From contig MFGJ01000007.1 in the NCBI GenBank assembly GCA_001778235.1, positions 264,331 to 328,330 of the forward strand: DNA of 64,000 bases. The letters are read 5' to 3'. The notes below the pieces were generated by a model that worked only from the letters and a program-made list of their open reading frames with translations, searched no databases and had not been told where the DNA came from. The stretch's first letter is position 1. Each line of letters starts with the position of its first letter. The stretch is from Candidatus Falkowbacteria bacterium RIFOXYC2_FULL_36_12 (GTDB lineage: Bacteria; Patescibacteriota; Patescibacteriia; UBA11705). A program made the translations under genes and the position numbers. Below are positions 1,238 to 63,725 of the stretch, in pieces.

Positions 1238-1330
1238 AGAATAAAGCGAGTAAAGCGAGTACAGCGAGAACAGCCCGCCTACGCTAAAGCTATGGCGGGT
1301 AAACGAGAACAGCGAGAACAGTTAGTGCTT
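1238..1330. repeat. 9-bp tandem array (consensus wAmAGCGAG, about 7 units) interrupted by a cccgcc..ggcggg palindrome
   Basis: The units taaagcgag / tacagcgag / aacagcgag are read directly. The array abuts the nrdG start codon within about 6 nt. An inserted hairpin cccgcctacgctaaagctatggcggg splits the array. Confidence 0.8.
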
Positions 1331-1687: not shown

Positions 1688-3751
1688 TTAGTTTTCTGAA
1701 GCTTTAGCCAAAACATCCGAGCCAGCCTCAATATAACCCATTTCCTCATCACAACGAGGACAATATTCATGCTCGCCAGAGATATAACCATGAACCGGGC
1801 AAATACTAAATGTTGGAGTTATGGTGAAGTATGGCAGACGAAAATTTTCAGCAATTTTCTTGACCAAAGATTTTGTTGAGCCAATTGATGGCATTTTTTC
1901 TCCAACAAAACCATGAAGAACCGTACCGCCTGTATAACGAGTTTGCAAATCATCCTGAAGTCGAAGAGCTTCAAAAATATCATCGGTATAGCCAACTGGA
2001 AGCTGGGAAGAATTGGTATAATAAGGATCAGCTCCTTTTTCAACATAATCTTTTTCATTGGCAACAATAATCTCTGGGTATTTGCTTTTATCAATCTTGG
2101 CAAAACGATATGAAGTACCTTCGGCAGGAGTAGCTTCGAGATTAAACAACTGATTGGTTTCATTTTGGTAATCCATAAGTCTCTCTCGCATAAAATCAAG
2201 GGTCTGACGAGCGAATTTATGACCTTCAACAGTGGTGATATCTTGACCGAGTAAATTAATTGAAGCTTCATTCATACCATTGAGACCAATAGTATTGAAA
2301 TGGTTTTTCCAATATTCACCAAATCTTTCATGGATTGTGCTTAAATAAAATTTACTATAAGGATACAAACCACCTTTGGTGAATTCTTCAAGCGCTTTTC
2401 GCTTTATTTCAAGACTTTGTTTGGCTAAATCCATTAATTCAGCGATACGAGCAAAATATTCTTCTTTATCTTTGGCAATAAAGCCGATCCTTGGCAAATT
2501 AATTGTGACAACACCAATTGAACCGGTCAAAGGATTTGCGCCAAAGAGTCCGCCGCCACGCTTTCTAAGTTCTCGGTTGTCCAAACGCAAACGACAACAC
2601 ATACTACGAGCATCGTCTGGACTCATATCTGAATTTATAAAATTTGAAAAATATGGAATACCGTATTTGGCAGTCATGCCCATAATCTGATCAATAATCG
2701 GATTGTCCCAATCCCAGGTGCTGGTTACATTGTAAGTTGGAATCGGCCAGCTAAGTACACGGCCACTTTTGTCACCTTCGGTCATGACTTCAATAAAGGC
2801 CTTGTTGAACATATCCATTTCTTGTTGATATTCACCGTACTTTTCCTTTTGCGGTTGGCCTCCAATAATTACTGATTCATTGGCCAATATACTTGGGACA
2901 AAAAGATCAAGCGTAACATTGGTAAAAGGTGTTTGAAAACCGACTCTAGTAGGAACATTAATATTATACAAAAACATCTGTACCTGCTGTTTTACACTTT
3001 CAAAATCCAACTTATCATAACGGATAAACGGCGCAACTAAAGTATCAAGCGAGGAAACTGCTTGGGCACCGGCTGCCTCACCCTGAAGGGTATAAAAGAA
3101 ATTTACCAATTGGCTCAAGGCAGTAGCAAAATGCTTTGGTGGTTTACTCTGGACTTTACCCTGAACACCACCAAAACCACGAAGCAAAATATCCTTGAAA
3201 TCCCAGCCACAACAGTATGGTGCAAGTAGTTGTAAATCATGGATATGAAAATCACCGCTAACATGTGTATCTTTTATATTTGGTGGATAAACTTTGTTGA
3301 GCCAATAATGTGAACTGACTGTGGAGGCAACATAGTTATTTAATCCCTGTAAAGAATAATCCATGTTGGAATTTTCTTTTACCCGCCAATCATTTAATTT
3401 CAAATAATCTTCCATCAGCTGATCAGAATTGATCATGGCATCTAAATCACGAATTTTTGCATGCTGGTCGCGATAAATGATATAAGCTTTGGCTGCCTGA
3501 ATAAATTTTTGTTCAATTAGACAGTTTTCAACCATGTCTTGAATTTCTTCAACTGCTGGGATTGTTCGTTCATGAAACTTTTCATTTATCCTTTTCATGA
3601 CAATGTCTGAAATGTTCTCTGCGTCTTCTTGGGTCCCAGTCTCGGTAGCTTGCAAGGCCTTGAAAATAGCTTTGGTTATTTTTTCCTGTTCAAAATCCAC
3701 AATACGGCCATCGCGCTTGCGAATTTGGATGATTTTGTTTCCTGCGTACAT
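1688..3751 (-). CDS. nrdD: anaerobic ribonucleoside-triphosphate reductase, large subunit lacking the glycyl-radical tail
   Basis: 687 aa with an ATP-cone-like N-terminus. The C-terminal Zn ribbon is CPVHGY...CPRC. The protein ends right after the Zn ribbon without the RVxGY glycyl-radical motif. Confidence 0.9.
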   Translation of the reverse strand: MYAGNKIIQIRKRDGRIVDFEQEKITKAIFKALQATETGTQEDAENISDIVMKRINEKFHERTIPAVEEIQDMVENCLIEQKFIQAAKAYIIYRDQHAKIRDLDAMINSDQLMEDYLKLNDWRVKENSNMDYSLQGLNNYVASTVSSHYWLNKVYPPNIKDTHVSGDFHIHDLQLLAPYCCGWDFKDILLRGFGGVQGKVQSKPPKHFATALSQLVNFFYTLQGEAAGAQAVSSLDTLVAPFIRYDKLDFESVKQQVQMFLYNINVPTRVGFQTPFTNVTLDLFVPSILANESVIIGGQPQKEKYGEYQQEMDMFNKAFIEVMTEGDKSGRVLSWPIPTYNVTSTWDWDNPIIDQIMGMTAKYGIPYFSNFINSDMSPDDARSMCCRLRLDNRELRKRGGGLFGANPLTGSIGVVTINLPRIGFIAKDKEEYFARIAELMDLAKQSLEIKRKALEEFTKGGLYPYSKFYLSTIHERFGEYWKNHFNTIGLNGMNEASINLLGQDITTVEGHKFARQTLDFMRERLMDYQNETNQLFNLEATPAEGTSYRFAKIDKSKYPEIIVANEKDYVEKGADPYYTNSSQLPVGYTDDIFEALRLQDDLQTRYTGGTVLHGFVGEKMPSIGSTKSLVKKIAENFRLPYFTITPTFSICPVHGYISGEHEYCPRCDEEMGYIEAGSDVLAKASEN

Positions 3752-3836
3752 AGGGAAAGATATTAGTTAATAGTTGAGAGTTGTGTGTTGAAAGTTGAAA
3801 GATTATAGATTAGAGAATGGGGATGCGAAAATGGAG

Positions 3837-4349: not shown

Positions 4350-4439
4350 AATATGTGCTTTACTCCAAAGTTTAAATACTTTTATAAAAATGATGTTAAA
4401 CTAAAATAAATATTTGTGTCGGGAAATATAAAGTGATTG

Positions 4440-4930
4440 TTATCCACAGAATTTTGTTGTAGTATTTTTGGTTAGTAAAATTATTGTTTCAGCAAAGCTG
4501 TTACTTTTTGACATCCTGCCTACCCTGCCTACCCTGCCTACCGGCAGGCAGGTGGCAGGCAGGCCCCGAGGCTTACCGTGTTCGTGGGGTTGTTGTATTG
4601 CTAAAGTAAGTTTTTTGAGATTGTGTGATTCTTTCGCTTTGCGAGCTACTTTTGACACCAAAAGTAGCCAAAAGTGCTGGGGGGATTCAATGCGAATTGC
4701 ATTGTTCATCCCTAGTGCATTGATTACCCGCAGAATCCCCCCAGACCCCTATGCTTGGCATATTTGTGGGATTTGATATTAAAGTTAGTGATTGGTTTTG
4801 CTAAAGCACGCCCCAGACCTGCCTTCATCAAGATTACGGCAGGCAAGCCCCGAGGAATATCATTCTTGATATTTTTGGATTTGGAGATTTGGCATAAGTG
4901 AATGGGCACAAGTTTTTTAAAAAACAAAAA
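4440..4930. repeat. about 500-bp non-coding region dense in perfect hairpins and dispersed-repeat copies
   Basis: (cctaccctg)x3 followed by ggcaggcagg. A 10-bp stem gctacttttg/caaaagtagc. A 10-bp stem ggggggattc/gaatcccccc enclosing aatgc-gaatt-gcatt. A 41-bp family-A element at 4811-4851. The track ORFs here are low-complexity and repeat-encoded. Confidence 0.6.
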
Positions 4931-4950
4931 ACTGAGAAATATTATCCCAG

Positions 4951-10374: not shown

Positions 10375-10986
10375 TTATAAATTTAATAACTTACCTGGTC
10401 CATTTGGATTGTAGCCATTTTTTACTTCTTCACCATCGGGATAAGTATCACCGTCAGTATCAACTTTTAGCGGATTGGTCTCGTAAAGCTGTATTTCCTG
10501 ATAATCGGACAAACCATCATCATCAGTATCTGCTTTCAGAGGATTAGTGTTAAATAAAGTTTCTTCATTGTCCTTCAGACCATCTCCATCTGTGTCAAGG
10601 TCTACATCAACTTGGGTATCGTCTGTAGCAGGAATGGTCACGGATAAATCAGAATCTGTTGGTGTGGTTGCTTCAATGTCAGAATTGTTTGCAGTATTTG
10701 TATCATCAATGGGATCAGAGTTATCAGAAACAAATAAACCAGTACCAAAAACAGAAAAAGCCCCGGCTGCGACTACAAGAAATAGAAAAATTAAGACCAC
10801 AATCAAAATAATTTTGCTACTACTCTTTTTGGTTATAGGTGCCTGATAGTCAAACTGCTGTTCAGGTTGTGCCAGTGGCTCTGCACCAACAACTGGTTGT
10901 AAATTCTCGGACTGTGGTTTCACCTCCTCATTATTAGTGACTGGAGCTTGCTGCAAATTTTGCTCGGATTTTGGATCATCAAACAT
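10375..10986 (-). CDS. single-pass membrane protein with three thrombospondin-type-3-like Ca-binding repeats
   Basis: A TM segment (IILIVVLIFLFLVVAAGAF). The repeats DTDGDGLKDNEE / DTDDDGLSDYQE / DTDGDTYPDGEE follow the DxDxDGxxDxxE pattern. Confidence 0.5.
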   Translation of the reverse strand: MFDDPKSEQNLQQAPVTNNEEVKPQSENLQPVVGAEPLAQPEQQFDYQAPITKKSSSKIILIVVLIFLFLVVAAGAFSVFGTGLFVSDNSDPIDDTNTANNSDIEATTPTDSDLSVTIPATDDTQVDVDLDTDGDGLKDNEETLFNTNPLKADTDDDGLSDYQEIQLYETNPLKVDTDGDTYPDGEEVKNGYNPNGPGKLLNL

Positions 10987-10989
10987 ATA

Positions 10990-11062
10990 TTAAGCGAGAT
11001 AAGCGAGAACAGCGAGGTCAGCGAGTAAAGCGAGTACAGCGAGGTCAGCGAGTAAAGTAATA
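10990..11062. repeat. 9-bp tandem array (NNNAGCGAG, 8 units)
   Basis: Units taagcgag ataagcgag aacagcgag gtcagcgag taaagcgag tacagcgag gtcagcgag. The array begins about 4 nt upstream of the 10986 start codon. Confidence 0.85.
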
Positions 11063-11117
11063 CTTTCTTCTGAACTTGCTGTCTTCGGTACTTGCTGTCT
11101 TCTGTTCTGGCTATTTA

Positions 11118-14100
11118 TTAAAATGAAATATTTATATCTGGGTTGTTACTAAATGAATCATAATAACCTTTCAATATTCCTTCTAGTTTATAATCTAACT
11201 GGGCTGAATTGAAAGAATTAAAGGTATACCAATAAACATAGTCTCGGCCAGAGAAAGGATGGGAACTTCTAAATGAATTTGATTGGTATTCTTGAGTTTC
11301 AGAATTAAAACAAGTTTTTGGATCGGTTCCAGTACGACAAAGAGAACAAATTGATTGATTATTTACTGTGAAACAAGAATCTGAACTGGTAAAACATTTT
11401 CTTCCATTATTGGTGTTATCACAGCTAACACCATTATATTCAGGCAATGAACTTGGCTCATAACTAGCAAATGAATTTACTGGGTCAACAGAAAGTGCCC
11501 GACCTAATACATTGGCAAATTCAGCCTGCCAACTAGGCCAAGGACTATAAACATTGCTTCGCAAATAAGTCCCTGATTCAAGTTTTGGCAAAGTTGAATG
11601 TTGAGTATAGTAACTGGATAACAATTGTCGAATTGAAACTATATCATTGACGCGTTTAATATCTCTTTTTATAGCCCAGAGTTCATCAGAAGTCGAGACA
11701 TTGGTGTTTAAACTAATATTATCAACTAATTGAGAAAATATATTGATGGTATTTGGACTGGCTTGTTGATTGTAGCCGAGTACATATATATTGTTGAAAA
11801 GTCTGCGATTGATTGTTCCTTGAGTTTCAACAGAAGCTTTATTACCACCAGAAATATAAATTGTATTACCATCCTGAACTCCATAATAACATATTTCAGT
11901 TTGATAGAGAGGATCTGTGGCACAATCAACTTTTATTTCAGTAACCACGGTTTTGGCATTTGGAACATTAGTCAAATACCAGTCCCTGGCTGATAAATTT
12001 CCAGGATTAGAATACACACGAAGAGAAATAGCATCGCTTGAAAAATCATTGGTGATATCTGCTTGGCGCAACAAGAAATATTGATGTAATAAATTTTGTT
12101 CATTTGCAGCTTGACCAGCTGGAATAACGCTAATAGCAGGAAGATCATCATCCAGGACATTTGACTGTCCGGCATCTCGGCAATATGGCATTTGGAGGTT
12201 GTCAAAAGGAAAATCAAGTGTCTGTGGATTTTCACAAAGAAAAGTTGTAACTATTCCAGAACCTTCAATAGTTCGACCTGATTCACCATAAAATTGATCC
12301 CGAGCAATATGAGCTTTGGCAGTAATGGTGGCTGTGCCATTTTGGGTACCGGCTGAAGCTTCAAACTCATCTGGGGCAGGATTAGTGATACTGACAATAT
12401 TTAAGCCACCATCATCTATGCGCCAATTGTCCCAAGTCCAAGAATAATCTGCTGTTGAGAAAAGAATATTTGAGCCTGCTTTGGCGAAACGATGAACTGA
12501 CCAAGTTTCATTTACTGTTGTGGCATATTTTTCCGCAGGATCAACACCAACAGAATCAAAATGACAAATATCAGTACTGACATCAAAGGTGAACTCCTGT
12601 TTAGGGATGCTCATCCTACAATTATTTTTCAAGTCTTTTAAGATTATCTTATACCTAGTTGATTTTAATATTTCATTTGGTTGAATAAATATACTTGTTT
12701 GTGTCTTGTCTGAAATTGGTCTGATGGTTATTTGATATTGTCCTTTATCAAGCTTGCACCAATCTAAGGCACTGGCTGAAGAAATAAATATTTTTCTAAA
12801 CCAATCCTTTATTTGACCAATAAATGACAATGATCCTGTAGTACAGTTTTCAGCTTGATATTCGATCTCAACATGTGAAGATGCGGTAGAAGTGCCTGTC
12901 AACAAATCATCAAGTAAAAGATCATAACTGACAAAGATGGCACTGTTACGGCAAACTGGATTAGCTAAATCAGGGCTGACCATAGTAGCTCTAGGTGGAT
13001 TGTTCGGATCGCAACCAGGAGGTGTTGGACCGGCCTGCCCTGAATAAATGTATTTTAATTCACCAGAATCCTGCAAACTAATGCCGGTAGCTCCAGCTGT
13101 TTTTTCTTCAGCAGTAACATTTTCAGTTAAGGTTGCCCTGACCATGGCAGTTTCTTCACTCGTAGCAATGCTCAAATAACCCAAAACAGTAATTAGAGAT
13201 TTTGGACTGCCAAAACTGGCACCAGAATCATCACCTTCGCATTGATAATCTTCACCTGGATCAACTGAACCATCATTGCAGGATGTACCAGCAATAATGG
13301 CTGAACCATTGTTCAGACATTCAGAGGTACACCAGCTTGGGGCAATGCAACTACAACCAGCTGAACCATAACTGCAAGATTTTCCAGCATCTTGACAAAT
13401 ATACTCACATTCTTCCTCGTAGCCATCATATGTTTCACCCAAACCATTGCCACAACAATTTCTGGTTGTTGACTGATCGCAAGCTGGAAAACCTGACAAT
13501 AAACAAGTATTACTACAAATAGCATCACTGTATTGCTCGCAAGAACATCGGGAATCTCGAGTAGGATTACAAGTACTACCATTTGAATCAAGACAATTGA
13601 CTGAAATTGGCTCACATTCTTCACCAGATTCAATAGTACCATTACCACAAATAGCAACGCGATCTGATGATTTTATATTGCTACCACTATATAAACATTT
13701 ATTATTTAATCCAAATTTTTGGTTTAATTGACCAAAATCATCATCCTCACCAAGTTCTTTCAAACTATTACCACAGGTGAATCCACTAGCGGTCGAACCT
13801 TCATTTAGACAAACTGCACTGCAACCATCACCTGAAGCATTGTTACCATCGTCACAATCTTCTGAAAAATTGATTGTGCCATTGCCACAACAAATTGCAC
13901 CTGAATCCAAAACTGAATCGCCAAAACAAGCTGTGGTGCCGGAATATAAACATATATCAGTACAGCCATCATTATTATTTACATTACCATCATCACATTC
14001 CTCACCAACTTCAACCAATGAGTTGCCACAAACAGCTTGATACGGCTCTGAACCGAGATTCAAGCAATTTTCGGTACAACCTGGATTTATTTGTTGTAAA

Positions 14101-23577: not shown

Positions 23578-24210
23578 TTATTTATTTTCAGAAAATTGCT
23601 CATAGCTTATTGGACTAAAAATCTTTACCCGAGTCAACGGCCAACCACGAAGCCAAACCTTGCCAACAATATTGCCTCGGCCAACAGGTCCGAACACCCT
23701 TGAATCCAAACTGTGTTCCCGATTGTCGCCTAAAACATAATACTCATCAGCTTCAAGATTCCAAACTTTATCACCTAATGTTCTGGTAGAATTATCAAGA
23801 TAATCCATTTCATCCAATAAATATTTTTTTTCTCCTTCATCAGTGTATACAAAGACAAAACCATCCCTAACTTCAACTTTTTCTCCAGGTAAGGCAATAA
23901 CACGCTTTATAAAAAATTGGGACGGATCCTTTGGGTAGCGAAAAACAATAATATCACCTCTTTCAGGCTGACTAATACGATAAGACAACTCATCAATAAT
24001 CAAATATTCATCATCATAAAAACTTGGTTCCATTGACGCACCTTTTACATAAAATGGTTGAATTAAGAAGTATCGAACAGGAATAATAATAGCAAGAGCA
24101 ATGCAAACCACCTTGACTAGGTCCCAAAAAAAGTATGCTACCTTTTTCCCTGGGCTAATATCTTCATCATAATCCTGGAATTTATATTTATCGGGGTTTT
24201 TGCTTAACAT
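23578..24210 (-). CDS. lepB: signal peptidase I
   Basis: GASMEPS (Ser box), IKRVIALPGE (Lys box) and GDNREHSLDSR. Confidence 0.85.
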   Translation of the reverse strand: MLSKNPDKYKFQDYDEDISPGKKVAYFFWDLVKVVCIALAIIIPVRYFLIQPFYVKGASMEPSFYDDEYLIIDELSYRISQPERGDIIVFRYPKDPSQFFIKRVIALPGEKVEVRDGFVFVYTDEGEKKYLLDEMDYLDNSTRTLGDKVWNLEADEYYVLGDNREHSLDSRVFGPVGRGNIVGKVWLRGWPLTRVKIFSPISYEQFSENK

Positions 24211-24391
24211 TATGATAAAATTATTAATAAAATAGGTCTAAACATGGCTATTATAACATATATCCAAGCTCAATGCAAACCCTAAGATTTTAGCTTAATT
24301 TACATTCTTGCAGTAAGGTTAATAGTGTAGTATAATAAACATGCTATTTACTAAATATTGAAATATTTAGTAAAAATTTTTATTTTCTATC

Positions 24392-25825
24392 GTGGCTGGT
24401 ATTATGAATCAAAATTTGCCAAACAACCGAAATATAAATCTGCTAGAAAACAGCATCAGACAACCAAAGGGTAAGAGTATTTTCAAAGTCAGCAAATTTG
24501 TTATTTATTTTTTTGTTTCTTTAATTATTGCTTTCTTCTTTTTTTCATATCAAGTTTTATTTACAGATACGAGCCTAAGTGAATCACTTGGAGGAAAAGT
24601 CAATATTTTCCACCAACTAACTACCATGGCCAAAGGTGGATCGGAATTAAAAGCTGACAATGGACGAGTGAATGTTCTGCTTCTAGGTGTTGGCGGTGAA
24701 GGACACGATGGCCCGAACCTGACTGACACAATCATTGTCGCCAGCATTGAACTTGAAACAAACAAAATTGCCATGATATCAATCCCTCGAGACTTGGTGG
24801 TGGAGATAGAAGACAAAGGATTTTGGAAAATAAATAATGCGAACCATTTTGGAGAACAAAAAAATCCCGGGCATGGAGGAGAATTAGTAAAAAATGTTGT
24901 CAGTCAAGTAATAGGCGTACCAATTCATTACTATATCCGAGTTGATTTTTCAGGATTTGAAAAATTGATTGATGATTTGGGTGGAGTAAAAGTTGAAGTT
25001 GATAACAGTTTTATTGACTATCAATTTCCAGCTGCGAACTATAAATATCAAGTTGTGTCTTTTGATAAGGGTTGGCAAACAATGGATGGTGAAACAGCAC
25101 TGCAATTTGTCAGGAGTCGACACGGAAATAATGGCGAGGGTTCTGATTTTTCCAGAAGCAAGCGTCAACAAAAAGTTATTACAGCGGTCAAGGAACGAGC
25201 ACTATCATACAGAACATTGTTCAGTCCTGGAAAATTGTCAAAACTACTCAAAGCCTTTGGGAAACATGTAAGCACGGACATGGAGATAAATGAAATACTT
25301 GAACTTTATAAACTATCAAAATTAATTGATCTTAACCAAACCAAAAATATTGTACTCGATGATAGTCCTGGAGGATATTTAGTGGCAGGAAAAATGAATG
25401 AAGCATATGTCTTGCAACCGCGAAGCGGAAATTTTGGAGAAATACAATTCTTGGCACAAAATGTATTTGCTGGGAACCCAGTACTTGAAGCCAAAAGCGA
25501 CATAACTTCCACTGTTCTAGAAATCCAAAACGGAACACCAACAAATGGTCTAGCTTTCAACTCATCACAAAAATTGAAACAACTCGGCTTCAAAGTAGTT
25601 AAGATTGGCAATGCACCAACCCAAGATTATACCAAGACGGTCATGTACAAATTAACAGATAAGACCATTGACCAGGAAGTGATAGAAACACTTGAAACAA
25701 AACTCGGAGCTGAACTGATTGAACAAATACCCGCTTGGGTCCGTGAAGATGCAGAAATAACCACTGACTTTTATATTATCCTTGGTGAACAAAATACGGG
25801 AATTAATCAAGATACTGCTGAATAA
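24392..25825 (+). CDS. LytR-CpsA-Psr (LCP) family cell-envelope phosphotransferase
   Basis: An N-terminal TM segment, then VNVLLLGVGGEG...DTIIVASI...ISIPRD, the LCP core, plus a C-terminal LytR_C-like domain. Confidence 0.8.
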   Translation: MAGIMNQNLPNNRNINLLENSIRQPKGKSIFKVSKFVIYFFVSLIIAFFFFSYQVLFTDTSLSESLGGKVNIFHQLTTMAKGGSELKADNGRVNVLLLGVGGEGHDGPNLTDTIIVASIELETNKIAMISIPRDLVVEIEDKGFWKINNANHFGEQKNPGHGGELVKNVVSQVIGVPIHYYIRVDFSGFEKLIDDLGGVKVEVDNSFIDYQFPAANYKYQVVSFDKGWQTMDGETALQFVRSRHGNNGEGSDFSRSKRQQKVITAVKERALSYRTLFSPGKLSKLLKAFGKHVSTDMEINEILELYKLSKLIDLNQTKNIVLDDSPGGYLVAGKMNEAYVLQPRSGNFGEIQFLAQNVFAGNPVLEAKSDITSTVLEIQNGTPTNGLAFNSSQKLKQLGFKVVKIGNAPTQDYTKTVMYKLTDKTIDQEVIETLETKLGAELIEQIPAWVREDAEITTDFYIILGEQNTGINQDTAE

Positions 25826-27229: not shown

Positions 27230-27230
27230 T

Positions 27231-27600
27231 TTGAATTTTGAAGAATTATACCCTGAACCAAGTTCAGGGTGACAAGTTGGGAGATCCTGAAATCCATCTT
27301 CGTTAAAACTTCCGACTACGCTCTTTTGGGAGCTTCGACGGACAAGTCGATGGACAAGCAAGTTCAGGATGACGAGTGTAGGGTTCGGGGTGACGAGTGT
27401 AGGGTTCAGGGTGACGAGTGTAGGGTTCAGGATGACGAGTGAGGGGCGTAGAATCATACCCTGAAATCCATCTTCGTTAAAACTTCGATGGACAAGCAAG
27501 TTCAGGGTGACAAGTTGGGAGATCCTGAATTGACATTAGAGGAAGGAATGGAAAAATTAATTTGAATTTTGAAGAATTATACCCTGAAACTACGCACTAT
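27231..27600. repeat. composite non-coding repeat island (accctgaa/ttcagggtgaca family)
   Basis: 30-bp direct repeats aatttgaattttgaagaattataccctgaa at 27231 and 27559. About 55-bp segments are repeated at 27263 and 27469. A central about 21-bp tandem (gggtgacgagtgtagggttca) occurs about 4 times. Confidence 0.8.
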
Positions 27601-27616
27601 AAACAAGTTTAAGTGA

Positions 27617-42530: not shown

Positions 42531-42722
42531 GCCGAAGTGCCCGCCTACGCAGGTGGCTACGGCGGACAGGGCGGTAATTAGTAGAGAGATTTAACTTTCT
42601 ACCAGTTCCGCCACATTTACAATCATGCCGAAGTGCCCGCCTACGCAGGTGGCTACGGCGGACAGGGCGGTAATTAGTAGGGAGATTTAACTTTCTACCA
42701 GTTCCGCCACATTTACAATCAT
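42531..42722 (+). repeat. two 96-bp tandem direct repeats derived from the 5' part of the adjacent tRNA-Leu
   Basis: Each unit starts with gccgaagtg, which equals tRNA-Leu nt 1-9. Each unit contains ctaccagttccgccac, the reverse complement of tRNA-Leu nt 7-21, and ends acatttacaatcat. The units differ by 1 nt (gtagag vs gtaggg). The third unit is the tRNA itself. Confidence 0.85.
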
Positions 42723-46304: not shown

Positions 46305-46321
46305 AAGTTTTGATTAATTAA

Positions 46322-46350
46322 TTCTTGACGAATTGTTTTTGATATGATAA
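46322..46350 (+). promoter_or_regulatory. sigma-70-type promoter (TTGACG-17-TAATAT)
   Basis: Read directly from the sequence. It drives the hairpin RNA below. Confidence 0.5.
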
Positions 46351-46356
46351 TATATT

Positions 46357-46462
46357 TTTGTTGAAAGTTCAATGGTAGGTTTCCTGGTGGCTGGCGGTAT
46401 GAGGAATCCCCCCCAGGAGTGCAGTAGTCAACGATGATCTACTGCCAGCCACCTTTTTTTCA
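46357..46462 (+). ncRNA. about 100-nt candidate sRNA: a long hairpin with a terminator
   Basis: ggtggctggc...gccagccacc is a perfect 10-bp stem enclosing a C-rich internal loop (aatcccccccaggagtgcagtag), followed by ttttttt. The region is GC-rich relative to its AT-rich surroundings. Confidence 0.3.
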
Positions 46463-46487
46463 ACAAACTAATTTATGTTATAATACT

Positions 46488-46791
46488 GAAGTTCCCAGAC
46501 GGTGGCCAACGGCCATGCTACCTGATGGGACGACTGCCCTCTAGCGTTCTGGCCAAATTGCTAAAGGGCGACCATCCCCCCATTCCCGTTGTCCTGGGTG
46601 CGCTGACTGAAGATCTTCCCCTGCTTTCAGGAAGAGGCTGAAGTAGCGTAGCCCCTTAACCTTAACCTGCCACCAGAAAGCTAGCTCTGTGTAGTGTGAG
46701 CTCCACTCCAGAGCGAATCAACCGAGCTCAAACCGCCGGATGCCTAAACGCACCTGGCTGCCCATCGCGATTCACGATCGTGATGGGCATT
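46488..46791 (+). ncRNA. about 300-nt GC-rich structured RNA candidate, unidentified
   Basis: Preceded by a -10 tataat at about 46476. It ends with hairpin gcccatcgcgat-tcac-gatcgtgatgggc followed by ttttt at about 46786. There is no ORF. The GC content is far above the genome background. It matches none of the RNase P, tmRNA or SRP consensus blocks I checked by eye. Confidence 0.35.
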
Positions 46792-46806
46792 TTTTATTAT
46801 AGACAA

Positions 46807-47715: not shown

Positions 47716-47835
47716 AGAGGTAACATGGGTTAAAATGGTTAAATGGGATGTTTGAGCTTGAAGGGATTATCAAGAATTATTACTTATATTCAGGTCTTAT
47801 TTTCCCTTAAAATATGCACAATATCTCACCACCTC

Positions 47836-47864
47836 TTGACAACAAATGGCACATGTGATATAAT
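47836..47864 (+). promoter_or_regulatory. consensus sigma-70 promoter TTGACA-17-TATAAT
   Basis: TTGACA at 47836-47841, a 17-nt spacer, and TATAAT at 47859-47864. Confidence 0.6.
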
Positions 47865-47870
47865 GTAATA

Positions 47871-48072
47871 GTTAAATGAGTTTTCTTTGGGTTCGCCCAG
47901 AGAAAAGGGTTCGAAGCTAGGTCCGACTAATTCGGATAGGGAGAGTAATCTCCTAAAGATCCTAGTGGAGGCGTCCCTGACCGCAAGGTCAAAAAACAGC
48001 AGAGGCACGGTAAACAACCCGTGTCACTACCCCCAGAACGTGTTCGCATGTTCTGGGGGTCTTATTTTTTTA
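47871..48072 (+). ncRNA. about 200-nt structured ncRNA candidate (6S- or SRP-like size), unidentified
   Basis: Hairpins cuuuggg-UUCG-cccagag, uccga-cuaau-ucgga, ggag-aguaau-cucc and gacc-GCAA-gguc. Terminator cccccagaacgtgttcgcatgttctggggg followed by ttattttttt. No ORF. Confidence 0.45.
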
Positions 48073-52559: not shown

Positions 52560-52684
52560 TCAACATCTTCACTTGTCATCCTGAACTTGTTTCAGGATAT
52601 AATTGAATAGCTGATTTATTTTTCTAAATACCCTGAAATATCTGCCTGTCGGCAGACAGGAATTCAGGGTGACAAAATTATTAT
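52560..52684. repeat. palindromic repeats of the accctgaa/ttcagggtgaca family
   Basis: atcctgaac-ttg-tttcaggat and accctgaaatatctgcctgtcggcagacaggaattcagggtgacaa. Confidence 0.75.
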
Positions 52685-62280: not shown

Positions 62281-62444
62281 ATATTTATACCATTCTTGAC
62301 ATAATTTTATAAATAAGTTATCATATTGTCATCGTGTAATTTAACTAAAGCTAGATAAAAAAGTAAATAAAACAAGAACAGAATAAAGTGAGTACAGTAG
62401 ACATACAAATATTCTCTGATCTCTCTTTACTGGTATAAAAATAT

Positions 62445-63458: not shown

Positions 63459-63604
63459 CCCCAGACCTGCCTTCATCAAGATTACGGCAGGCAAGCCCCA
63501 GAGATGTTCATGTTCGATGGTTTAAATATATAGACTTGGTGGTGGTGTTGACGGCAAGAAAGCCCCCAGACCTGCCTTCATCAAGATTACGGCAGGCAAG
63601 CCCC
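63459..63604. repeat. two copies of the 41-bp dispersed element ccccagacctgccttcatcaagattacggcaggcaagcccc
   Basis: Copies at 63459-63499 and 63564-63604. A third identical copy is at 4811-4851. Internal inverted repeat cctgcc/ggcagg. Confidence 0.85.
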
Positions 63605-63725
63605 GATGCTATAAAACTTACTTCCGTGGAAAATGAATCGCAGGCGATTAAATTATTTAGAGATGTGAAGGCTATGGCTTGCAAAATTAAAACCACCAGC
63701 ATTTATGCTGATGGTTTTAATTTGA

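Follow-up and report, generated by a model that had tools for sequence, protein, structure and literature searches.

How a start codon is chosen without a Shine–Dalgarno (SD) sequence is an open question for much of the bacterial tree, with the candidate phyla radiation (CPR), Bacteroidota and cyanobacteria as examples, and for their phages. CPR genomes are usually regarded as streamlined, and repeat arrays that abut start codons have, to our knowledge, been described once so far, as a curiosity, in the form of the TAACTGA heptamers. These direct repeats occur in marine Beggiatoaceae and in some Cyanobacteria and Bacteroidetes, where 147 of 170 sets face a start codon, the most numerous class stops 1 nucleotide (nt) upstream of it, and an SD is present in only ~10% of the downstream genes (MacGregor 2015, PMC4679880). 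Some sets are 'split', with related units, and the downstream genes have no function in common; the function of the repeats is unproven, and binding of S1, Csp or CsrA, or a horizontally transmitted element, has been suggested (PMC4679880). Here we describe arrays of a different unit, with the core AGCGAG on the forward strand and CTCGCT on the coding strand, in 64 kb of contig MFGJ01000007.1 (the window; GC content 36%) from an uncultured Candidatus Falkowbacteria (CPR/Patescibacteria) population of Rifle aquifer groundwater. Two of them, termed loci 1 and 2, lie directly before the start codons of nrdG and of a gene for a 203-residue TSP3-repeat protein.

Like the TAACTGA sets (two to six or more copies), the arrays of the window are intergenic short direct repeats in forward orientation that end a few nt before the starts of genes without an SD. 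They differ in their period of 9, in their unit, which is a 6-nt core (CTCGCT/CTTGCT) with a free 3-nt spacer, in their CPR host, in being joined to a conserved GC-rich hairpin, in the inverted arm carried by some copies, and in their number of two to four loci in ~85 kb. As the unit is CTCGCTnnn at period 9 and not TAACTGA, we regard them as an analogue and not a member of the TAACTGA class, which is the closest described phenomenon. New here are start-abutting arrays in a CPR genome with a different unit (9-nt period, hexamer core) and, as a new lead, a cross-phylum hairpin that goes with arrays and reaches into phages; the arrays also provide concrete sequences for testing SD-independent initiation. 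The abutment of start codons, picked out by the earlier note on this DNA, is real and is the most interesting property of the arrays. Our best but tentative reading, in which we place less than even confidence, is that they are a sense-strand leader element for SD-independent initiation.

Phased AGCGAG pairs (AGCGAGNNNAGCGAG, at most one mismatch) have nine matches in the window, all within loci 1 and 2, against 0.01 expected from shuffles, and Tandem Repeats Finder (TRF) reports a period of 9 at both. On the + strand, nnnAGCGAG units keep a strict 9-bp phase at 1242–1321 and 10990–11055. Because both flanking genes lie on the − strand, the mRNA-sense reading is CTCGCTnnn, and the RNA form of the arrays is written (CUCGCUNNN)n after its unit, CUCGCUNNN. 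At locus 1, upstream of the array, nrdD is followed by a separate small piece of this gene and then by a terminator-like hairpin (aattCCCTCG...CGGGGGaatt; 1350–1380, − strand), which sits 3' of the small piece and is kept in orthologous loci. In + coordinates, three perfect cores (1245–1268) are followed by a 26-nt hairpin, an 8-nt unit (aACGAG), one perfect core and truncated AACAG ends. The sense order is ctgtt-CTCGCTgtt-CTCGttta-CCCGCCatagctttagcgtaGGCGGG-ctgtt-CTCGCTgta-CTCGCTtta-CTCGCTtta-ttcttat-ATG(nrdG), in which the distal units (1300–1321, − strand) lead through a conserved junction into the GC hairpin module (1274–1299, − strand; sense CCCGCC-ATA-GC-TTTA-GC-GTA-GGCGGG), and the proximal array (1238–1273, − strand) runs toward the gene. 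The last CTCGCT core ends 7 nt before the nrdG ATG (1232–1234, − strand; open reading frame (ORF) 539–1234). This start is real, since homologues conserve the N-terminus MLIGGLQK but often have Thr in place of the internal Met at residue nine.

Locus 2 fills the 131-nt spacer between the stop codon of a gene for a 2669-residue giant protein (11118–11120, − strand) and the ATG of the 203-residue protein (10984–10986, − strand), whose MFD/MLD start is common to orthologues. The array (10990–11055, − strand, 9-nt phase) comprises seven perfect cores (10993–11052), with the sense spacers GAC, GTA, TTA, GAC, GTT, TAT and TAA from 5' to 3', plus a degenerate eighth, and is followed by taatat-ATG, so that its last core ends 6 nt before the ATG. 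A 27-bp super-period is reported by TRF. Beginning 6 nt after the giant-gene stop codon, an inverted degenerate arm (two copies of GAAGACAGCAAGUNC in sense orientation; 11063–11111, − strand) pairs with the array into a long imperfect hairpin. The unit counts given earlier, seven for locus 1 and eight for locus 2, were thus generous, as locus 1 has four perfect cores and locus 2 seven with a degenerate one.

The six positions of the core do not vary among 11 full units, whereas the three spacer positions carry 0.6–1.0 bit, and all three differences between the two 27-nt blocks of locus 2 sit in spacers (P=0.03). An exact 24-mer is common to loci 1 and 2; together with the 27-nt duplication, it points to recent copying between sites and local block duplication. 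On the sense strand, no ORF with a start codon covers either array. A coding role, in which CTC-GCT-NNN would read Leu-Ala-X with CTC and CTT synonymous, is rejected, as the frame has no start codon to open it at either locus, is broken by stops, and differs between the two halves of locus 1. The concern that the arrays fall inside mis-called coding sequences is thereby answered in the negative, both starts being backed by orthologue N-termini. A leaderless mRNA, or a promoter inside the array, is likewise rejected, since neither a scan nor inspection by eye found −10/−35-like hexamers at proper distance. An NrdR operator is also rejected, because the arrays are unlike NrdR boxes and also occur at a gene outside the nrd group. 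A Rho loading (rut) site was considered because CUCGCU has much C and little G, but YC dimers are missing from the relatives' arrays (UUACnnn, UACGAA). Searches of Rfam, at gathering and permissive thresholds, returned only tRNAs or chance-level matches, Pfam searches of the neighbouring unidentified ORFs gave no transposase and no regulator, and a literature search by sequence string gave only incidental 16S rRNA and primer matches.

An SD-like motif lies within 20 nt of the start in just 4 of the 52 ORFs scanned in the window, and neither locus 1 nor locus 2 has one; most starts are preceded by plain A/T-rich sequence. It is true that the arrays at both loci leave no room for an SD, as had been remarked, but this is nothing special: because the whole genome is almost SD-free, the remark is uninformative. 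A few genes of the window have very strong SDs (the small nrdD piece, 38024), and canonical TTGACA/TATAAT promoters are common.

In the ~85 kb of the source genome covered by the analysis, we find three full loci and one relic. The relic, locus 3 (GAATAAAGTGAGTACAGTAG; 62381–62400, + strand), lies in the rplS leader, downstream of a canonical TTGACA-17-TATCAT promoter, and has no intact core; the pattern GAATAAAGTGAGTA matches there against 0.07 expected, and the site is non-random but decayed. Because it keeps the same absolute strand as the other arrays, it is antisense to rplS. Of the three loci that had been placed against start codons, loci 1 and 2 therefore stand, by their nine pairs and by starts that orthologues support, and locus 3 is a reversed relic 45 nt from the rplS ATG. 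The fourth locus (L259 19560–19675) lies in the same genome ~9 kb to the left of the window, with the layout TACTCGTTTA-hairpin-CTGTTCTCGTTTA-identical hairpin-CTGTACTCGCTGTCTCGCTTTT, its two hairpin copies spanning L259 19585–19653. It has the same junctions as locus 1, with 96.8% identity over 62 nt, and its hairpins are identical to the locus 1 module. Rather than splitting the array, as first supposed, the hairpin is a recurring module with conserved junctions. In the relative L133, the spacer orthologous to the fourth locus is empty.

The closest named homologues are from Falkowbacteria, and identical copies of NrdG and the 203-residue protein are encoded on contigs of GCA_001778075.1 and many ANAN16/JGI/Logan assemblies. 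Our strain set consists of 15 independent assemblies from several Rifle samples (L121–L132, L143, L259, L260), 99.76–100% identical to the window; one is a variant with 6 substitutions and 2 insertions or deletions in 3.3 kb, and one has a disrupted giant gene. Unit number, which the earlier note proposed to compare between strains, is invariant among these 15, all consensus sequences of the same population at no less than 99.76% identity. Beyond this population the next relative has an NrdG just 67% identical, with no intermediate divergence among the available assemblies, and synteny is kept in Falkowbacteria-like contigs whose NrdG is 61–65% identical.

In these relatives the sequence at the array sites is not conserved, yet repeats recur there. 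Before nrdG, L133 has (TTACnnn)x7 at 0–5 nt, running to the ATG, with an upstream AGTGRWT arm, and L261 has (CTAAACG)x3 with an upstream ATAGCGT arm; in both, the arm is complementary to the array. L136 has a single CTCGCT 7 nt before the nrdG ATG, and L262 and L263 have no array before nrdG. The junction between the giant gene and the TSP3 gene has a spacer of 17 nt in L136 and of 3 nt in L263. Elsewhere, L136 carries CTCGCTtaaCTTGCTtgtCTCGCT, three CTCGCT/CTTGCT cores at 9-nt phase, in a 5' untranslated region between a TTGACA-17-TAAAAT promoter and an AAGGAGG ribosome-binding site. TACGAA arrays are present in the spacer between nrdR and nrdD in L133, L136 and L262; at this place the window has CTCAACT-like heptamers, a different array of 7-bp period (3772–3798, − strand) that ends ~20 nt before the nrdD start according to TRF and 12 nt before it with a looser detector. 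TACGAA-core arrays (L136 6177–6434, 7326–7370 and 12325–12560; L133 7320–7350; L262 6033–6065) begin 3–6 nt after stop codons in the three relatives, are conserved at the nrdR–nrdD spacer and favour the sense strand in L136 by 21:2. They form a second, stop-proximal class of hexamer-core arrays.

We also pooled the short-period arrays in co-directional spacers of the source genome and four relatives. Of the 31, 11 have their end no more than 18 nt from a start codon, 4 begin equally close to a stop, and the longest nearly all abut starts. CTYGCT pattern scans were run on genome and metagenome contigs, and their counts refer to the matches listed; among these, most are perfect 9-bp repeats from high-GC genomes, one (L143) is the source organism, and three metagenome contigs have the CTYGCT-nnn architecture with variable spacers. 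In L204, six units followed by CCCGCCgaagctttagcgaaGGC, the same hairpin as at locus 1, lie upstream of an S-adenosylmethionine decarboxylase gene; in L155 the array comes directly after a gene for a four-helix bundle; and in L223 a (ACAGCAAG)3 arm and (CTCGCTnnn)5 lie in the interval that separates recR from a bidirectional terminator. In all cases examined, the strand that reads CTYGCT is the sense strand of the neighbouring gene (loci 1 and 2, the fourth locus, L136, L204, L155 and L223).

The hairpin belongs to a cross-phylum family, with copies at window 1274–1299, L259 19585–19653, and viral loci L264–L267 and L323 onward. The pattern CCGCC-RWA-GC-N2-10-GC-GWA-GGCGG matches more than 120 IMG/VR contigs with GC contents of 40–71%, and the family has no Rfam match. 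An asymmetric 5' flank, GnCTTGY, and an internal loop of 3x3 are conserved in the family, and a Y–R pair lengthens the stem; the copies of the window have the flank cgTTTA and not the family-wide GnCTTGY. The inner stem covaries from C–G to T–A and can be longer (e.g., GGTG/CACC, AAAT/ATTT), and inverted pairs of the hairpin occur in L264 and L266. On the viral contigs a short-period array lies within 80 nt of 16% of the hairpins versus 6.8% of control positions, and an SD with a start follows downstream in 19 versus 13 of 127, a weak association. Judged by these patterns, the hairpin is a candidate new widespread motif. In L265 the 5' acceptor strand of a tRNA-Gly, beside a serine integrase, doubles as the 3' arm of the hairpin.

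Three copies of the hairpin are carried by IMGVR_UViG_3300031566_013099, a tailed-phage contig with capsid, portal and terminase genes (L383 1–12970, L418 1–7724). In L418, 7-bp arrays of several unit types abut five of six gene starts, none with an SD, and some run into the ATG itself (…GAGTATC GAGTATC GAGT-ATG). In Cluster K mycobacteriophages, Pope et al. in 2011 reportedly described start-associated sequences and their extended form (SAS/ESAS), a 13-bp motif with an SD-like GGAG a few bp upstream of the start. Likewise in phage genomes, these lie just upstream of the starts of some genes and are sometimes preceded by an inverted-repeat element; unlike the arrays, the SAS is a single motif and not a tandem array, and there is no sequence similarity. 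One could go further and see the hairpin and its flanking lineage-specific short-period arrays as a single portable cis-element common to CPR, other uncultured bacteria and tailed phages, which would spread horizontally and deliver start-abutting repeat leaders, acting either as an SD-independent 'portable translation-initiation cassette' or as the recognition site of a hairpin-binding enzyme that also makes the arrays; we consider this combined proposal unlikely.

In the leader reading, the AGCGAG/CTCGCT arrays would be a lineage-specific form of a broader class of cis-elements, namely short-period, sense, non-coding direct repeats that fill a leader or intercistronic spacer up to the start in mostly SD-independent organisms. 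The element would be modular, with 9-nt units (an invariant CUCGCU core and a free 3-nt spacer) and the 26-nt GC hairpin. Its units would arise and grow through slipped-strand duplication of blocks of one to three units, and would be copied between intergenic sites by recombination or hairpin-dependent mobilisation. Runs of units that are not self-complementary would give a long leader, no more structured than composition-matched shuffles, whose reiterated single-stranded sites may bind an initiation factor for single-stranded RNA (S1- or cold-shock-type oligonucleotide-binding folds) and so tune SD-independent 30S loading. We propose that the arrays are kept next to AUGs because such a leader offers reiterated single-stranded RNA sites. 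At locus 2 the inverted arm could sequester most units, and initiation could then depend on ribosomes terminating at the stop codon of the giant ORF, i.e., on translational coupling.

Placement, orientation, core conservation, SD absence, the reappearance of arrays with other units at the same starts, and the phage contig are the observations that speak for a leader element. The recurrence in CPR, the unrelated units at the same starts in relatives and the phage arrays together suggest a general, evolvable solution and not a quirk. A role in a leader or initiation, or as a binding array, as put forward in the earlier note, thus stays viable and appears strengthened, by analogy, by the same architecture in relatives, on phage contigs and in the TAACTGA case. 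Several observations weigh against the leader reading. Transcription of the arrays, binding and any effect on translation are what we infer and not what is directly observed. The fourth locus has the ksgA terminator on one side and a conserved TGGTATAAT promoter on the other, with the next ATG 66 nt away, and is for that reason probably outside any leader; the array of L223 is 3' of recR, between convergent genes. With the fourth copy upstream of a promoter, L223 behind its gene and L204 more than 100 nt from a start, a strict association with start codons does not hold, and the start-versus-stop bias of 11 versus 4 is suggestive, not decisive. Orthologous sites in relatives are empty or have unrelated units, which looks like fast, weakly constrained turnover. 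CTCGCT arrays precede only 2 of the ~85 genes examined in the source genome, with no functional theme common to both. As to folding, the array with its start region and without an inverted arm is barely structured (−7.1 kcal/mol for 91 nt, z +1.0), but array-only folds are not significantly less structured than shuffles; and at locus 2 it is the opposite strand that folds better (−60.1 kcal/mol, z −4.8), which a model of sense-strand RNA does not predict.

The main rival, which we hold to be possible although rather improbable, is a selfish or neutral modular intergenic repeat of the kind known as repetitive extragenic palindromes (REP), bacterial interspersed mosaic elements (BIME), REP doublets forming hairpins (REPIN) or short tandemly repeated repetitive (STRR) sequences. 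REP, BIME and REPIN are small, imperfect, GC-rich palindromes in extragenic DNA, species-specific, with a GTAG flank, and are mobilised by REP-associated tyrosine transposases (RAYT). The cyanobacterial STRR heptamers, attributed to Mazel et al. in 1990, are said to be tandem units dispersed in non-coding DNA, of several types per genome and unsettled function. With the former our element shares a 20–40-nt imperfect palindrome that is dispersed extragenically, forms a mosaic with short motifs and has an asymmetric conserved flank; the flank is CTTGY and not GTAG, the hairpin is common to very different GC contents and phyla, and the tandem units are phased. With STRR the relatives and the phage contig share 7-bp arrays of several unit types, whereas the window has a period of 9, the phylum differs, and neither hairpin nor start association is part of the STRR definition. 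On this account the core that moves or recombines would be the hairpin, which an HUH/RAYT-type enzyme may recognise as single-stranded DNA, and the arrays would be by-products of slippage or repeats of flank motifs. They would extend as far as the ATG only because insertions at that position are tolerated in an SD-free genome; constant orientation would follow from strand-specific insertion with genes co-oriented with replication. It gains from the near-identical stretches that point to recent copying (24 nt in loci 1 and 2; 62 nt in loci 1 and 4), from the variation of presence and unit type between relatives at orthologous sites, from the indifference to intergenic context (the terminator–promoter gap, 3' of recR), from the cross-phylum hairpin family on more than 120 viral contigs, whose GnCTTGY flank and covarying inner stem recall the REP pattern of GTAG plus hairpin, from the inverted hairpin pairs, and from several other dispersed GC-rich hairpin or repeat families in the source genome. 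It is harder to reconcile with an invariant core and free spacers, which are unlike pure slippage, with the start-proximal bias of the pooled arrays and of the TAACTGA sets (PMC4679880), and with a streamlined tailed phage that keeps arrays before five of the six gene starts of L418, which is hard to square with junk. No transposase or RAYT (Y1 HUH transposase) gene was found in the ~85 kb of source genome, nor beside the copies examined. Were the selfish account true, CPR genomes would carry REP/STRR-like selfish DNA, which would also be new.

The invariant hexamer core with its variable spacer would also suit reiterated double-stranded DNA sites for a sequence-specific protein, an operator or nucleoid-type array as for ribbon–helix–helix repressors, with one protomer per 9-bp unit and the DNA wrapped, 7 x 9 = 63 bp being six helical turns. 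Precedents for reiterated binding are TRAP, which binds (G/U)AG repeats in RNA leaders, and the omega heptads and MetJ metboxes on DNA: these too have a short conserved core, variable spacers and a fixed short period, and TRAP arrays can overlap initiation regions while omega and MetJ sites sit at promoters, but core, period and host of our arrays are unrelated, and the binding protein is putative. Direct and inverted units at locus 2 and L223, a CTYGCT core conserved across genomes (window, L136, L204, L155, L223) and the fourth-locus element, which ends ~40 nt upstream of a −10 box in an activator or operator position, fit such sites; a strict sense-strand bias is unexpected for them, no promoter-like site lies within or downstream of arrays 1 and 2, no regulator gene is nearby, and the downstream genes are unrelated. 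We rate a double-stranded DNA array as quite unlikely, and slightly more so a structured intercistronic RNA or DNA cruciform, in which array and inverted arm would form an RNase III-type processing site, an mRNA stabiliser or an attenuator. The folds favour such structure where an arm is present, as at locus 2 (sense −43.2 kcal/mol, z −3.5) and, in an unrelated organism, L223 (sense −49.3, z −2.7; antisense −70.1, z −5.9), and in L133 and L261, too, the array has a complementary arm upstream. Yet locus 1 and the fourth locus, which fold into their small hairpins alone (z ~ −1.9 each), L204 and L136 have no convincing arm (z about −1.6 to −1.9), the arms of the locus 2 stem differ in period (16 versus 9), and the better-folding strand is antisense to the genes. 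The antisense strand folds better at locus 2 because AGCGAG:CUUGCU pairs by G·U where the sense strand has A·C. Lastly, a hypermutable contingency tract, in which unit number would alter promoter-to-start spacing or expression, had been suggested in the earlier note, and we find it highly improbable. Like the simple sequence repeats of contingency loci, the arrays are tandem repeats between a gene and its upstream signals, and the 27-bp block duplication records past slippage. Against this, the arrays are identical in all 15 assemblies, including the strain with 6 substitutions and 2 insertions or deletions in 3.3 kb, although consensus sequences could miss minor variants; the units, whose spacers vary, are not the perfect repeats that are prone to slippage, the arrays lie outside ORFs, and no flanking promoter elements are present where spacing would matter.

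The difference between strands amounts to 17–21 kcal/mol in window 10960–11125 and L223 1525–1690, where CTCGCT units face CTTGCT-type inverted units. At the nrd locus, nrdD is split (1409–1582 and 1688–3751, − strand): the 687-residue ORF stops after the Zn-ribbon, and the glycyl-radical motif (RVVGY) is encoded by a separate ORF of 57 residues, which has a ribosome-binding site of its own, GGAGGGAGG. Relatives keep the split, and in them Pfam NRDD matches the small ORF; a DnaA-box-like TGTGGATAA lies in the gap between the two ORFs.

The hairpin of locus 1 had also been said to recur beside tRNA-Leu. Two related hairpins (CCCGCCTACGC...GGCGG; 42540–42670, + strand, copies at 42540 and 42636) are indeed present there, and they have the 11-mer CCCGCCTACGC in common with locus 1 and nothing beyond it. 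They lie inside a 96-bp tandem duplication directly 5' of the tRNA (42531–42722), each unit of which begins with the first 9 nt of the tRNA, followed by the related CCCGCCTACGC... hairpin and an antisense copy of tRNA nt 7–22. The duplication resembles the outcome of a small element inserting serially and duplicating 9 bp of its target.

The window contains no rRNA gene. Its genes switch strand at ~24000–24400 (− to the left, + to the right), which coincides with the cumulative GC-skew minimum and marks a possible replication origin region. Two long non-coding stretches on the − strand, 46305–46806 (GC 0.48) and 47716–48061 (GC 0.42), are far richer in GC than the genome, have obvious stems and no Rfam match at gathering thresholds, and are candidates for divergent housekeeping or novel non-coding RNAs. 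Among the dispersed repeats, one family has 21-bp units (GTTCAGGATGACGAGTGTAGG, four to five copies) flanked by ccctgaa/ttcaggg hairpins, in both orientations and at several intergenic sites (window 27230–27616 and 52567–52592; L259 18037–18674). A 600-nt gene-free, GC-rich region at 4350–4950 holds a hairpin whose arms are tandem repeats (CCTGCCTGCC.. / TAGGCAGGG, three copies), and a 40–65-nt hairpin repeat (CCCCAGACCTGCC...GGCAGGCAAGCCCC) occurs three times in the window, at 4811–4875, 63459–63523 and 63564–63628.

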